A stretch of 64,000 bases of DNA, from the NCBI GenBank assembly GCA_038209585.1, contig JBBQXN010000006.1, positions 2,171 to 66,170 of the forward strand, in the 5' to 3' direction. Shown here piece after piece: positions 33,741-38,600 of the stretch (positions are counted from its first letter, which is position 1; each line of letters opens with the position of its first letter). Position numbers and translations under genes: made by a program. The notes below the pieces were generated by a model. It did no database searches, was not told the DNA's origin, and worked only from the letters and a program-made list of their open reading frames with translations. The stretch comes from Burkholderiales bacterium. GTDB lineage: Bacteria; Pseudomonadota; Gammaproteobacteria; Burkholderiales; Burkholderiaceae_C.

Positions 33741-34879
33741 ACCGGGGCCGCCGAGTTGGACGCAGGAACGATGGCGATGGTCTGGCGCAAACGGGTCATG
33801 CGCTGGCCGACTTGGGTGCGGTCCTGCACTTCACCAGCCAACTGTCCACAGGCTGCGTCGATGTCGTCGCCCCGCGTCTTGCGCACCGTGGTCACCAGGC
33901 CGGCGTCTTGCAGCACGCGGGCAAAAGCCTGCACGCGGTCGCGCGGCGAGCATTTCAGGCCCGAAGCTGGAAACGGGTTGAAAGGAATCAGATTCAGCTT
34001 GCAATGGATACGACCGCGCAGCAGATCGACCAGGGCCTGGGCGTGTTCCACCGTGTCGTTCACGCCGTCGAGCATGCAGTATTCGAAGGTGATGAAGTCG
34101 CGGGGCGCGTTGTCCAGATAGCGCTGACAGGCGGCCAGCAATTCCGAGATGGGGTACTTGCGATTCAGCGGCACCAGCGAGTCACGCAAGGCATTGCCTG
34201 GTGCATGCAGGGAGACCGCCAGCGCGACTGGGCAATCGTCGCGCAGGCGGTCGATCATGGGCACGACGCCCGACGTAGAAACCGTGACACGACGGCGCGA
34301 CAAACCGTAGCCGTGGTCGTCCAGCATCGTGCGCAGCGCGGGCACCAGCGCAGCATAGTTTTGCAGTGGCTCGCCCATGCCCATCATCACGACGTTGTCG
34401 ATGACGCGCTCACCCGCAGGTCGGCCACCCTGACCGCGCAAGCGGTGTTCTGCATGCCAAAGCTGCGCGATGATTTCGCCCGTTGTCAGGTTGCGGCTGA
34501 AGCCTTGGTGACCTGTAGAGCAGAAGCGGCAACCCACCGCACAGCCGGCTTGCGAAGATACGCACAGCGTGCCCCGGTCGGTCTCGGGGATGTAGACGGT
34601 CTCGATCGCGTTCCCCTGGCCCACGTCGAACAGCCACTTGATGGTGCCGTCGGCCGAGACATGTTCGCTCAGCAGTGGCAGGCCGCGCACTTCGGCTACG
34701 CCAGCCAATTTGCTGCGCAATGACTTGGCCAGGTCGGACATGGCCTCGAAGTCGGCTTGCCCGCGCTGATGTAGCCAGCGAAAAAGCTGCACGGCGCGAA
34801 ATGGCTTCTCGCCAAGCGTGGCGCAAAACGCCGTCAAGCCGCTGAGGTCGAAGTCGAGCAGGTTGACGGCCATGGCCAT
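33737..34879 (-). CDS. rlmN: 23S rRNA m2A2503 radical-SAM methyltransferase
   Basis: [27 protein letters not shown]. Confidence 0.97.
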
Positions 34880-34907
34880 GCCAGCCGGGGGTTGGTGCTG
34901 CAGCGTC

Positions 34908-35333
34908 TTAACGCGCGTAGACGTTCATGCCGGGGAAGAAGAAGGCCACTTCCGCCGCTGCCGTCTCGGGCGCATCGCTGCCGTGCACGGCGTTGGCGTC
35001 GATGCTGTCGGCGAAATCTGCACGGATGGTGCCCTTGTCGGCCTTCTTCGGGTCGGTGGCGCCCATCAGGTCACGGTTCTTGCCGATCGCCCCTTCGCCT
35101 TCGAGCGCCTGGATCATCACCGGCCCGCTGATCATGAACGTGACCAGATCGTTGAAGAAAGGGCGGGCCTTGTGGACGGCGTAGAACGCCTCGGCTTCGC
35201 CGCGCGACAGATGCGCCATGCGGGCAGCCACGACCTTCAGGCCGGCGCCTTCAAAGCGGGCATAGATCTGGCCAATGACGTTCTTGGCCACGGCGTCGGG
35301 CTTGATGATGGACAGGGTGCGTTCGATGGCCAT
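34908..35333 (-). CDS. ndk: Nucleoside-diphosphate kinase
   Basis: [22 protein letters not shown]. Confidence 0.98.
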
Positions 35334-35458
35334 GGGTGTCTTTCTCGGTCTTTCTGCGCAGCAGGCTGCGTCTGGGGTGATGTAGTTGGAGATTGCCGCC
35401 TGGGTGCACGACAAAGCCTTGGATTCTAGCCCGCAGCCAACGTCTGCATGGCTTAGCC

Positions 35459-37750
35459 CTACCTGGACCGACCGCCGCCGCCGCCGCCGCGCGGGCCGCT
35501 GTTACCGCCGCTGCTACCGCCGCTGTTTCCGCCGCTGTTTCCGCCAGTGTTACCGCCACTGTTCCTGCCGCCCTTGCCGCCTCCAGAACCGCCCCGACCG
35601 CCCCGACCGCCACTGCCTTTGCGCAAGAAAGCGTCACCGCCAATGAATCCCACCGACGTCTGCATCGGATCCGGCTCGCGGGGGGCACCGCTGGTTTTCT
35701 TGGCTGGGCCAACTCTAGCCTTCTGACGACCAGGCACAGGTGGCCCACTGCGCGGACCGCGCTTGGCGCCAGGCTTGCCGTTGCCGGGCTTGCCACCGCC
35801 CAGGCTGTTGCCGCCCCGTCCGCCACCGCCGCTCTTGGCTACGCCGCCCTGGTTGCCAGAGAAGCGTTTGTCGTAGGTCTGCTGGAGCGGATTGGGGATG
35901 GGCCCATCAGTGTCGTCTTCAGAAACTTCGCGCTGTGGCATGCGGTCGCGCATCAGTGCGCGCTTGTCGTAAGTCTGCTGCAGCGGGTTGGGAATCGGCG
36001 CGTCTTCCGACAATTCGCGGCGTTGCGCCCGCTCTTGCTGAATCGCCCGCTTGTCGAAAGTTTGCTGCAACGGGCTGGGAATGGGCCCGTTCTCACCGGC
36101 ATCGGCGCGCGGACTGCGGTCAGGGCGCGGGCCGCGATCAGCGCGGTCGCTGCGTCCGGAGCGTTGCCGCTTGGAAGTCAGGCTCGACAATGAGGTCTGC
36201 AGCGGGTCGGGTATCGCGCCACGCGGCATGTCGTCATCAAATTCCCGGTTGACTGTGGCCGCGGCCGGACCCGCGTCACCTTCGGCCCGCCCACCACGAC
36301 CGCCACGCCGATTGCGCGCGCCACGGCCGCTGCGGCCATCCTCACTGGCGACATCCGCTTCTCGCGGCGCCCGCTCTGGGCGAGGGCCGGGGGTGGCCAG
36401 ACCACGCAGCGTGCGCAGATCGCTTTCGTCCAGGTCGACCCAAACCCCGCGCTTCAGCCCGCGCGGCAGCACCACCGAGCCATAGCGGATGCGGATCAGG
36501 CGGCTGACCGCATGACCCACCGTCTCGAAAAGCTTGCGCACTTCGCGGTTGCGGCCTTCAGTGATGACGCAGCGGTACCAGTGATTGACACCTTCGCCAC
36601 CGCCGTCTTCGATGCTCTTGAATGCGCAGGCCTGGCCGTCGATGTCTACGCCTGCCAGCAGCCTGGCCTTGGCCTCGTTGTCCAGCGTGCCCAGCGAACG
36701 AACGGCGTACTCGCGCTCGATGCCGAAGCGCGGGTGCATCAGCTGGTTGGCAAGTTCGCCGGAATTGGTGAACAGCAACAAACCTTCGGTATTGATGTCC
36801 AGCCGCCCCACCGACTGCCACTTGCCCTGCTGCAAACGCGGCAAGCGCCTGAAAACCGTGGGCCGCTGCTGCGGGTCGTCGTGCGTTACTACTTCACCTG
36901 CAGGCTTGTGATAGGCCAGAACCCGCGCAGGCGGCGGCGCGATGCGCACACGCACGGGCTTGCCATCGATGGCAATACGGTCGCCGTAACTGATGCGCTG
37001 GCCGATATGCGCGACCTCGCCGTTGACGCTGACGCGCCCTTCGTTGATCTTGGTTTCCAGATCACGGCGCGAGCCTGCGCCCGACTGGGCCAGCACTTTG
37101 TGCAGCTTGGGCGCGTCTGGCTCGGCAGCCAGCACGCGCTTGGGTGCAGCTTGCAAGGCCTGTTCTGATTCTGGTCCTGAGCCGTCGCTCTCGACGGCCA
37201 GCTCTGGCTCAAGCGCAACGTCGAAGCGGCCGTCCAGCAGTTCTGCAAATACCTCACCCGCTTGTGGAATCACGGCCACGGGCAAGGCCGCGGCTTCGGC
37301 GGTTTCGCTGACAACAGTGGCATCGCCTTCATGGACGCCGCCGTCGCCCCCGCGCTTGTCTGCACCGCGGCGGCCACGCCTGCGGTTGCGATTGCGCCGG
37401 GCACTGCGGCTGGGCGCTGCTTCGGCTTCCGCCGCTGGGGTACCGGAGCTTTCGCCTGAGCTCTGGCCATCGCTATCGCCATCGCCATCGCTATCGCCAT
37501 CGCCATCGCCATCGCTTGAACCCTGTTCAGCGCTGGCCGACGCAGGCTCATCTCTCCGGGGCGGCGCTTGCTCAGCCACCAACTCGGGCGCGACTGAAGC
37601 TGGCACGGTTACGTCTGCCACGGATGTCGCAGCGGCTGCAGGCTTGCGCGGCGCACGCTTGCGTTTGGGCGCTGCTGGCGCGTCATCGCCTGCAGGCGGC
37701 TTCTCGGCTGCGGGTTCGGGTGGCAAGGGGTCGGCGTCGTGAACGTTCAT
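35459..37750 (-). CDS. rluB: RluB-like pseudouridine synthase with long disordered N- and C-terminal extensions
   Basis: S4 domain [44 protein letters not shown]; start overlaps the scpB stop. Confidence 0.92.
35864..36088 (-). repeat. Three coding repeats of PIP(S/N)PLQQT(F/Y)DKR
   Basis: Copies are spaced 87 and 96 nt apart. Confidence 0.95.
37467..37515. repeat. 6-bp tandem repeat (CCATCG/CTATCG, about 8 units) encoding [16 protein letters not shown]
   Basis: Read directly from the sequence. Confidence 0.9.
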
Positions 37751-38439
37751 GCTGTGCGGTCTGTGGGAAGTTCGGGGGGGCGTTGTGGAAGCGTTTCGAG
37801 TGATGCTTCGCAGAACGCCCGGGAAGGCTGGGTCTCTTCGTCCTGCAGCAACGTGGGCTGCGGACCTTCCAACAGCGGGTTGGCTGCCTGCAGTGCATCC
37901 AGTGCCAGCAACGCGGCCTGGCCGTCGGCGGCACTGTCGATGGCGGGCAACTGGTCCAGGCTGGCCAGGCTCAGATCGTCCAGAAATTGGCGCGTGGTGG
38001 CGTACAGCGCAGGCCTGCCGGGTGCTTCACGGTAGCCGATGGCGTCGATCCAGCCCCGGTCTTCAAGCTGCTTGACGATCTGGCTGCTGACGCTGACGCC
38101 GCGAATGTCTTCGATGTCACCGCGGGTCACGGGTTGGCGATAAGCCACGATGGCCAGCGTTTCCATCGCCGCGCGGGAATAACGCGGCGGTTTTTCAGGA
38201 TGCAGACGATCCAGGTACGGGCGCATTTCGGGCCGGCTCTGGAAGCGCCAGCCCGAGGCCAGTGCCACCAACTCCACACCGCGGTCCTGCCAGTCCTGGC
38301 GCAGGTCATCTAGCAACTGGCGTAGCGTGTCAGCACCGATCTCGTCTTCAAACAACGCACGCATCTCTGCCAACGGCAGCGGTGCCGGGGCACAGATGAG
38401 GGCGGTCTCCAAGACTCGCTTGGCCTGCGATGTATTCAT
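37747..38439 (-). CDS. scpB: SMC-Scp complex subunit ScpB
   Basis: [37 protein letters not shown]. Confidence 0.96.
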
Positions 38440-38600
38440 GGCCTGGTTTTCAGGGTCTGCCGGCAGCTAGCGCGACAGCGGGGGCAGTAGTGAGCATGAG
38501 GCGTGCGCTGACAAGAGTCAGGGCGCGGGGAGCTCGTCGGGGCTCGGCACCAGGCGCGGCAGGATGTGCCGTCTGCGCTGTGTTGGGCGAGTGTAGCGGT

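Follow-up and report, generated by a model that had tools for sequence, protein, structure and literature searches.

A putative family of short linear docking motifs in the disordered C-terminal tail of RluB from a Burkholderiales bacterium

RluB of Escherichia coli has 291 residues, and its 40-residue C-terminal tail is disordered and poorly conserved among species; the tail was removed for crystallography on account of this poor conservation, and the structures cover residues 1-251 (PMC3919597). Asp110 and Tyr140 have been described as the catalytic residues (PMC3919597). The tails of bacterial rRNA-modifying enzymes are commonly written off as non-specific RNA-binding filler. For RhlE2 of Pseudomonas aeruginosa, excerpts of two papers report that the disordered C-terminal extension is necessary and sufficient for interaction with RNase E (PMC11260450) and that it binds the N-terminal domain of RNase E (PMC11964227). 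In RNase E itself, according to the excerpted text of PMC4435900 and PMC11964227, scaffold motifs mediate the assembly of RNA-processing complexes.

The window analyzed here is a stretch of 64,000 nucleotides from a Burkholderiales bacterium (contig JBBQXN010000006.1), and the features of its rluB region are listed in Table 1. Pfam placed the S4 domain ahead of PseudoU_synth_2 in the rluB product, which is the layout of the RluB/RsuA family, and GRLD of motif II (G315, R316, L317 and D318), which carries the catalytic Asp, and Y348 of EREY were invariant in 106 homologs. The NCBIfam RluB equivalog model scored 286.6 bits over residues 214-452, under its cut-off of 290, with only profile positions 3-244 of 291 aligned because the tail differs; the RluF model was far behind at 89 bits. 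Judged on its sequence, the protein is an RluB-type 23S rRNA pseudouridine synthase for which modification of U2605 is predicted. Ortholog alignments start at residue 1-13, within the N-terminal extension, where F168, V171, G174 and D177 were at least 90% conserved among the 106 homologs; AF2 predicted a helix at residues 164-172 in a block with pLDDT of about 74, the rest of the extension being below 50. The RGG/GGNS end of rluB showed a 12-nt tandem DNA periodicity (repeat families D1, D2 and D5). The stop of the upstream gene scpB overlaps the start of rluB by 4 nt. The preliminary description of this DNA had named ScpB as a possible partner of the RluB tail, but nothing beyond this overlap, which has no tie to the motif, points to it, and ScpB was set aside.

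Table 1. Features of the rluB region, in positions of the window
Feature	Residues	Position	Strand	Evidence or remarks
scpB, directly upstream of rluB		37747..38439	-	ORF; named from translation reading alone
rluB CDS, 23S rRNA pseudouridine synthase	763 + stop	35459..37750	-	ORF and translation
N-terminal disordered extension	1-205	37136..37750	-	acidic DGDGDS repeats, Arg-rich patch, one conserved short helix
Conserved short helix in N-terminal extension	165-177	37220..37258	-	homolog conservation and AF2
S4 RNA-binding domain	216-259	36974..37105	-	Pfam PF01479; AF2 pLDDT 87-95
Pseudouridine synthase catalytic domain	277-452	36395..36922	-	Pfam PF00849 (PseudoU_synth_2), residues 277-409; NCBIfam RluB alignment to residue 452
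Arg/Gly/acidic disordered linker	453-512	36215..36394	-	AF2 pLDDT <50; variable among orthologs
B-type upstream copy, IPDPLQTS	513-520	36191..36214	-	degenerate, lineage-specific
A-type repeat 1 (13 residues)	556-568	36047..36085	-	repeat finder, homologs, AF2
A-type repeat 2 (13 residues)	585-597	35960..35998	-	repeat finder, homologs, codons, AF2
A-type repeat 3 (13 residues)	617-629	35864..35902	-	next residue F, then a Gly-rich spacer
B-type terminal box, EPDPMQTS(VGFIGGDAF)	692-708	35627..35677	-	homolog alignments
RGG/GGNS low-complexity C-terminal end	709-763	35462..35626	-	sequence; AF2 pLDDT <50

The five related motifs that the preliminary description had reported in the C-terminal arm were all located in the 763-residue translation where it had put them, and each copy was preceded by acidic or Gly-rich residues, which it had noted for most of them. 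They do not form the one family P(D/S/N)P(L/M)Q(Q/T) that it had proposed; instead they fall into two related classes of different ages, with lengths of 8-17 residues. Three are A-type (consensus PIP[SN]PLQQT[FY]DKR) and two are B-type (consensus PDP[LM]QTS), the latter comprising one conserved terminal box (B-box) and one degenerate upstream copy. The classes are taken as related because intermediate forms occur in genome L012, where one of 14 residues adjoins KIPDPMQTAVGYIG. Each A-type copy is led in by acidic residues and has a Pro-rich cap, at which a predicted short helix starts (residues 560-583, running past the motif, 589-603 and 621-630 in the AF2 model), and the repeat period is regular at 29-32 residues with one predicted helix per unit. 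In the DNA the A-type copies are spaced by 96 and 87 nt and are 73-82% identical. Among the 106 homologs I557, P558, P560, L561, Q563, D566, R568 and A569 were invariant in repeat 1, and P585-T593, D595 and R597 in repeat 2; repeat 3 has a position-specific ending, KRF, present in each of the 24 sampled genomes of the genus. In the terminal box P693 was invariant, and D694, P695, T698, V700, G701, I703, G704, D706 and A707 were at least 90% conserved in the same homologs. The upstream B-type copy was seen, among the 24 same-genus genomes, in the window genome (L001) and its closest sampled relative (L002) alone, reading in L002 as 12 residues similar to the terminal box. Scanned in all six frames for [IVLP]P.P[LM]Q[QT], the whole assembly showed the pattern in a plausible coding frame in rluB alone, and the repeat profile matched a single ORF of its own genome, again rluB (E of 1e-18, 7.5e-18 and 2.6e-10), which excludes a chance origin of the pattern. 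The beta-clamp motif has the consensus QL[SD]LF and the SSB C-terminal tip is DDDIPF; compared by these consensus sequences, both misfit the RluB motifs in sequence and position and were rejected as their identity.

The proposal that the peptide is conserved, not the DNA, was borne out at the codon level. Between the two identical 13-residue copies there are six synonymous changes and no non-synonymous one, at exactly the six codons listed in the preliminary description. The comparison of motif and spacer variation that it had called for was read off an alignment of 16 same-genus orthologs: in A-type repeat 2, 14 of 39 motif columns varied and 12 of these 14 were synonymous, whereas in the 13 spacer codons 34 of 39 columns varied. 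Motif residues were also invariant in the 106 homologs, whose overall identity is only 55-74%. The tail motifs are thus conserved islands amid fast-evolving flanks, as in short linear motifs (SLiMs), and the alignments argue that strong purifying selection keeps them at the peptide level. Antisense ORFs were rejected as the conserved element because the variation sits on third positions of the RluB frame.

The RluB tail matched no domain of Pfam or NCBIfam, and the AF2 pLDDT was below 50 in the surroundings of the motifs, 59-79 over the three helices that they initiate and 50-57 over the B-type box. The full-length model was poor, with a pTM of 0.32 and values below 50 over part of the catalytic domain. 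In this model the tail motifs are no part of the catalytic fold but belong to a predicted disordered region of low confidence; they are short (under about 20 residues) and stand in a region lacking a stable fold, as is usual for SLiMs. As a caveat for docking, a model of this low quality also leaves room for the tail to dock on RluB itself. Searches of the PDB sequences with the A-type and B-type profiles gave nothing meaningful, a feature search of the ESM Atlas with the tail gave unnamed short clusters alone, and no Rfam family was found on either strand of 34800-38600.

Conservation in orthologs had been set as a test of the motif, and copies were counted by profile as had been suggested. 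Exactly three A-type copies were present in all 24 same-genus genomes, and 110 of 301 family genomes carried the A-type repeat in 1-5 copies, always within one RluB-sized reading frame; since the compared genomes are kin, such counts overstate the number of independent events. Copy number differs between genera, from 1 to 5, and this fits independently acting modules. Amplified A-type repeats (PIPNPLQQT[YF]DKR) upstream of the B-box are found in the Rubrivivax/Leptothrix/Aquabacterium group. The B-box was more widespread: it was found in 270 of 301 genomes of the family and in 77 of 100 genomes of a second Burkholderiales family, and in none outside Burkholderiales in a class-wide sample. Burkholderiales includes Burkholderia, Ralstonia, Cupriavidus, Acidovorax and Comamonas, a range that would apply here if the second family is Burkholderiaceae sensu stricto. 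The box stands near the RluB C-terminus as QPDP[ML]xTS.GYIG.D in at least two large families of Burkholderiales, and it is the older, ancestral element, the A-type being a later, related version. A search of 1.84 billion proteins matched 62 cluster representatives. The full-length matches were positioned in the tail, typical of RluB, and of the 14 inspected as shortest or oddest, two were assembly chimeras and two unrelated low-complexity proteins, the others being RluB or fragments of its tail. In the family genomes and the protein clusters inspected the A-type repeat was carried by RluB alone, with no second carrier protein.

The B-box, on the other hand, recurs in an otherwise unrelated protein. 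A profile built from RluB only gave a second match in the tail of a DEAD-box helicase in five of five complete genomes, four further genomes agreed, and the helicase was the second carrier in all nine cases inspected. In these sister genera the box reads QPDPMRTS and lies in the RGG tail of an RhlE-like helicase whose best family matches are RhlE2 and RhlE. A second B-box locus was present in about 66 of 201 high-quality family genomes, about a third, and the inspected genomes with box-bearing RluB and helicase gave no other match, even at E up to 5. Among the proteins examined, the motifs appear from these searches to be limited to two RNA-remodelling enzymes, RluB and the helicase. The presence of the box in the tail of a second enzyme favors a trans-acting docking motif over filler. 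In the window genome RluB was the sole match for the motif profiles; the RhlE-like helicase of its genus is without the box, and the argument from two clients is therefore borrowed from the sister clade.

We consider it fairly likely that the disordered, Arg/Gly-rich RNA-binding arm of RluB contains a set of short linear motifs for docking, the docking being putative, and the motif probably serves as an undescribed handle for a candidate partner shared with the helicase. The motifs would bind a folded surface on a partner common to both enzymes, and multiple copies would supply avidity that keeps RluB at an RNA-processing site, as it would the helicase in the sister group, with the RGG stretches holding RNA non-specifically. 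The likeliest class of partner would be a component of 50S assembly or RNA processing, either a protein of the pre-50S particle or the RNase E catalytic domain; RNase E is a candidate because of the precedent of the Pseudomonas RhlE2 tail. The multivalent docking motif first proposed was supported in part, and the box on the helicase strengthens the case for docking beyond the original evidence, but the five motifs are not one class. A new scaffold role for a pseudouridine synthase, also put forward there, found no support and is speculation. More tentatively, and rather doubtfully at present, the PxP[LM]QxT box may be the handle of a Burkholderiales-specific RNA-remodelling hub, at which the pseudouridine synthase and the DEAD-box helicase would be co-recruited by a single folded partner such as a pre-50S protein or the catalytic domain of RNase E. 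Valency would then be set per lineage, either by repeat amplification on RluB, as in the Rubrivivax group, or by a box on two enzymes, as in the sister group. As a further caveat for docking, the abundance of Arg, Lys and Gln in the predicted helices could allow direct contact with RNA.

That composition is also the basis of an unlikely alternative, in which the motif-initiated helices are modules binding 23S or pre-ribosomal RNA with no protein partner and repeat number tunes affinity. RluB and the helicase both act in RNA remodelling and both have RGG tails, and the tails of RluB and RluF flank the RNA-binding core (PMC3919597). However, invariance falls on Pro, Leu, Gln, Thr, Asp and Ala, not on Arg or Lys, the basic portion of each helix is its variable portion, and the B-box has no conserved basic residue. 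Arg-rich RNA-binding tails usually keep their composition, not their exact sequence, which likewise counts against this explanation. Less likely still is docking of the motifs in cis on the S4 or catalytic domain of RluB as an auto-regulatory lid, or in trans between RluB and the helicase, with the folded core of RluB as the partner. The motif helices do stand above their surroundings in confidence in the single-chain model, and a helicase-borne box could recruit the helicase to RluB; but confidence over the B-box is low, the genus of the window keeps up to five RluB motifs with a helicase that lacks the box, and a single site on RluB would not account for the selection of 3-5 copies. That the repeats fold jointly as one small, fixed helical domain would fit their regular period and single helix per unit, but is very improbable: in such a structural tandem-repeat domain the copy number is fixed and the fold is one packed unit, whereas here copy number varies among genera, the linkers are acidic, Gly/Pro-rich and variable, the confidence of the helices is moderate and no solved structure was matched by sequence. 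Finally, a functionless by-product of recent DNA repeat expansion, for which the GC-rich low-complexity tail and the recent 12-nt repeats of the GGNS end might speak, is hardly credible and appears already contradicted by the alignments, as the copies are old (diverged DNA with identical peptides), orthologous and position-specific across the genus, invariant in the homologs, almost wholly synonymous in their codon variation, and common in motif to RluB and the helicase.

The enzyme is thus a known one, RluB, whereas the tail motif appears undescribed in the sources searched: no entry in Pfam, NCBIfam or the PDB describes it, and full-text searches of the literature on RluB tails, on SLiMs in pseudouridine synthases and on the motif itself yielded nothing about it. 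The conserved islands of this tail match the active site in conservation, and one is common to an RhlE-like helicase. The putative docking motif would provide a concrete, mutable peptide handle on how RNA turnover or the late maturation of the 50S subunit is physically organised in Burkholderiales, and its 1-5 copies form a natural valency series for bacterial models of avidity or condensates. If the hub exists, it would represent a new client-borne motif system for assembling bacterial RNA-processing machines.

Compared with described systems, the window RluB resembles that of E. coli in its S4 domain, its RsuA-type catalytic domain with Asp in GRLD and Tyr in EREY, and a basic, disordered tail at the C-terminus (PMC3919597). 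It differs in having 763 residues, with a 205-residue N-terminal extension and a tail of about 310 residues with invariant motifs. With RhlE2 (excerpts of PMC8266600, PMC11260450 and PMC11964227) it has in common that an enzyme of RNA remodelling bears a disordered tail rich in Arg and Gly. In RhlE2 this tail confers partner binding and function, which are putative for the RluB tail, and the box-bearing helicase itself scores best on RhlE2 and RhlE models. In contrast to the RluB motifs, no discrete motif is defined for RhlE2 in those excerpts, and the RluB box is limited to Burkholderiales in the class-wide sample and is also borne by a pseudouridine synthase. The microdomains of the RNase E C-terminal scaffold, as described in the excerpted text of PMC4435900 and PMC11964227, are likewise short, conserved, lineage-specific islands in a long disordered region; the RNase E motifs, however, belong to the hub, which binds folded clients through them, whereas those of RluB and the helicase are borne by the presumed clients.

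The 763-residue rluB reading frame encodes RluB, a predicted 23S rRNA pseudouridine synthase that is itself an ordinary enzyme. The RluB equivalog was the top NCBIfam model (286.6 bits, below its cut-off of 290, residues 214-452 aligned), followed by RluF with 89 bits, and D318 (GRLD) and Y348 (EREY), the counterparts of the catalytic Asp110 and Tyr140 of Escherichia coli RluB (PMC3919597), are invariant in an alignment of 106 homologs with overall identity of 55-74%. No Pfam or NCBIfam domain matched the approximately 205 residues ahead of this core or the 310 behind it, and both extensions showed AlphaFold2 pLDDT below 50. The rluB start codon overlaps the stop of an upstream scpB-like frame by 4 nt (ATGA, 37747-37750), which suggests translational coupling; ndk-like and rlmN-like frames come after rluB, and no Rfam family matched either strand of 34800-38600.

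The preliminary description had read five motifs in the C-terminal tail as a single multivalent docking motif. All five are present in the translation at the positions claimed, and the two identical 13-mers differ at six codons, every one synonymous and as described. The single family did not hold, since ortholog tails show two classes, A-type (PIP[SN]PLQQT[FY]DKR) and B-type (PDP[LM]QTS). These tails have one common layout: a variable Arg/Pro/acidic linker, n A-type units ([E/D][D/G], a 10-residue stretch, [Y/F]DKR and a charged stretch), a Gly-rich spacer, a single B-type box (QPDP[M/L]xT[S/A].GYIG.DAF) and an RGG end. The extra IPDPLQTS copy is a degenerating B-type, seen only in the window's genome and its closest sampled relative. 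Because a P-x-P-[L/M]-Q-x-T core is common to both classes and intermediate forms occur, such as a 14-residue form adjoining KIPDPMQTAVGYIG in ortholog locus L012, the two classes probably either go back to a duplication or occupy one and the same pocket.

Features of RluB and of RhlE-like helicases
Feature	Residues	Position	Strand	Source
rluB reading frame	763 aa	35459-37750	minus	translation
N-terminal conserved island	165-177	37220-37258	minus	
S4 domain	216-259	within 35459-37750	minus	Pfam
PseudoU_synth_2 domain	277-409	within 35459-37750	minus	Pfam
IPDPLQTS, extra B-type copy	513-520	36191-36214	minus	translation
A-type repeat 1, 13 aa	556-568	36047-36085	minus	translation
A-type repeat 2, 13 aa	585-597	35960-35998	minus	translation
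A-type repeat 3, 13 aa	617-629	35864-35902	minus	translation
B-type terminal box, 17 aa	692-708	35627-35677	minus	translation
12-nt tandem repeat, extreme C-terminus		35462-35626	minus	
RhlE-like helicase of the window's genome		L152 (contig C10), 1078..2712	plus	
Helicase tail with both islands, sister genera		L143, 4..1647	plus	
Helicase tail with both islands, sister genera		L145, 1411..2970	minus	
Helicase tails with both islands, sister genera		L146, L165, L166, L168		

The peptide rather than the DNA is conserved, as had been proposed. Among the 106 homologs the invariant motif columns include I557, P558, P560, L561, Q563, D566, R568 and A569 in repeat 1, the run P585-T593, D595 and R597 in repeat 2, and further P621, D627, R629 and P693, a conservation on par with that of the catalytic core. 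An alignment of the repeat 2 DNA from 16 genomes of the genus had 14 variable columns out of 39 in the motif, 12 synonymous (eleven third positions and one CTG/TTG) and two with replacements (Y/F and one K/Q), and 34 of 39 columns varied in the 13 codons that follow. DNA identity among the three A-type copies of the window is just 73-82%, with spacing of 87 and 96 nt. Exactly three copies were found in 24/24 same-genus genomes sampled, each with its position-specific ending (KRAIQQ-like, KRALQR-like and KRF); they are therefore old orthologous units, and a recent origin by slippage was rejected. The extreme C-terminus contains a 12-nt tandem DNA repeat (copy identity 68-81%) that seems to be of later origin than the motif repeats and more liable to slippage.

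The AlphaFold2 model obtained with the 106-sequence alignment was poor overall (mean pLDDT 52.8, pTM 0.32, catalytic domain partly below 50). It places tail helices at 560-583, 589-603 and 621-630 (block pLDDT 59-79 against 35-45 in the surroundings), each beginning at the P-L of PxPNPLQQ, and predicts the terminal B-type box as non-helical (pLDDT 50-57). By this model the A-type unit resembles a helix capped by Pro, on which L, Y/F, A and I/L form a short hydrophobic stripe and conserved polar residues occupy the opposite face. A conserved island in the N-terminal extension, with F168, V171, G174 and D177 at least 90% conserved among the 106 homologs, is also predicted to be helical (block pLDDT about 74, surroundings otherwise disordered) and may serve as another docking element, unrelated to the tail motifs.

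Within the window's genome the motif is confined to rluB, both among credible coding frames in a six-frame regular-expression scan of the 3.6-Mb assembly and in a search with the repeat profile A1 (40 units from 20 same-genus genomes), where the rluB frame was the sole match (E 1e-18, 7.5e-18 and 2.6e-10). The A-type repeat occurred in 110/301 genomes and 72/201 genera of the family (E up to 0.01; about 25 of the 110 rest on weak single copies), including Rubrivivax, Azohydromonas, Leptothrix, Aquabacterium, Pseudaquabacterium and Aquincola. Each genome had 1-5 contiguous matches, always in one RluB-sized frame, and nine ortholog tails read through had 2-5 copies apiece. Other families of the order gave 3 marginal matches in 300 genomes. 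Of 1.84 billion cluster representatives searched, no more than 62 proteins matched at E up to 0.001, the full-length ones at the RluB-typical tail position. Inspection of 14, picked for being the shortest and most unusual, showed RluB or pieces of its tail, two unrelated low-complexity proteins and two metagenomic proteins (P0167 and P0180) in which the A-type motif is joined to foreign N-terminal sequence (sigma-factor-like and solute-binding-like); the latter two have the appearance of assembly chimeras and not of genuine second carriers. The B-type box is far wider, being found in 270/301 family genomes (a tally that takes in one unpublished genome, G467, to which no single claim is pinned) and 184/201 genera, in 77/100 genomes from another Burkholderiales family (a single match each, in RluB-sized frames) and as traces in a third, with no credible match in 347 genomes from other families of the class.

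A search with profile A3, built from the RluB B-type box only, revealed a second, weaker match in some family genomes. Five complete genomes, each from a different genus, place it at the same site, with about 22 bits and an E value of 5e-4 to 9e-4 apiece: the RGG tail of a DEAD-box helicase, close to the C-terminus, where the sequence reads GGQPDPMRTSVD[S/M]M. Four additional genomes agree, RhlE-like helicases accounting for 9/9 inspected second loci; the best family scores were RhlE2 (522 bits) and RhlE (514 bits), both under the cut-off with an N-terminally cut query. The L144 helicase tail (genome G426) has two copies, GGQPDPLRTS and GGQPDPMRTSVDSM, and box duplication therefore occurs on the helicase too. 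In the helicase-box genomes nothing beyond RluB and helicase scored with the joint profile A5 at E up to 5. Genome G524, with two B-box matches, was discarded as a two-locus case, its RluB tail being split across two contig ends. A second locus was matched in about 66/201 high-quality family genomes (E up to 1e-5), with zero overlap with the 110 A-type genomes; this may reflect just two clades, the genomes being kin, or may represent two alternative ways of supplying valency. In the window genus the orthologous RhlE-like helicase lacks the box, its tail being plain Gly/Arg. In the window's genome, which has at least five DEAD-box helicase loci, this tail is pure Gly/Arg over ~90 residues. The box-bearing tails of sister genera have a second conserved island ~25-35 residues upstream of QPDPMRTS (roughly DDSQPR.ENAHLGTQ.GH) that is absent from RluB.

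Judged by sequence, the RluB tail motifs show the features by which functional short linear motifs are usually recognised, because they combine strong peptide constraint, disorder and variable copy number, and because they are confined to two RNA-remodelling enzymes, with an identical core in the tail of an unrelated protein. The motifs could recognise RNA directly, but Pro, Leu/Met, Gln, Thr, Asp and Ala, the residues found invariant, are unlike those of an Arg-rich RNA-binding peptide, and this favours a protein partner. The suggestion that ScpB might be this partner found no support, the 4-nt overlap having no tie to the tail motifs. The closest parallel comes from Pseudomonas aeruginosa RhlE2, whose disordered tail is described in two reports as necessary and sufficient for RNase E interaction (PMC11260450) and as binding the RNase E N-terminal domain (PMC11964227). 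Since, in addition, aberrant 50S and 40S particles of E. coli show enrichment of RluB alongside degradosome proteins and SrmB (PMC9848016), our best guess, and only a guess, is that the protein partner would belong to the machinery of 50S assembly or RNA decay. No record of the motif was found in Pfam, NCBIfam, PDB or the literature, and the finding opens a clear experimental path. What is new is the presence of two discrete invariant motifs, one of them common to RluB and an RhlE-like helicase; the E. coli RluB tail has been described as disordered and poorly conserved (PMC3919597).
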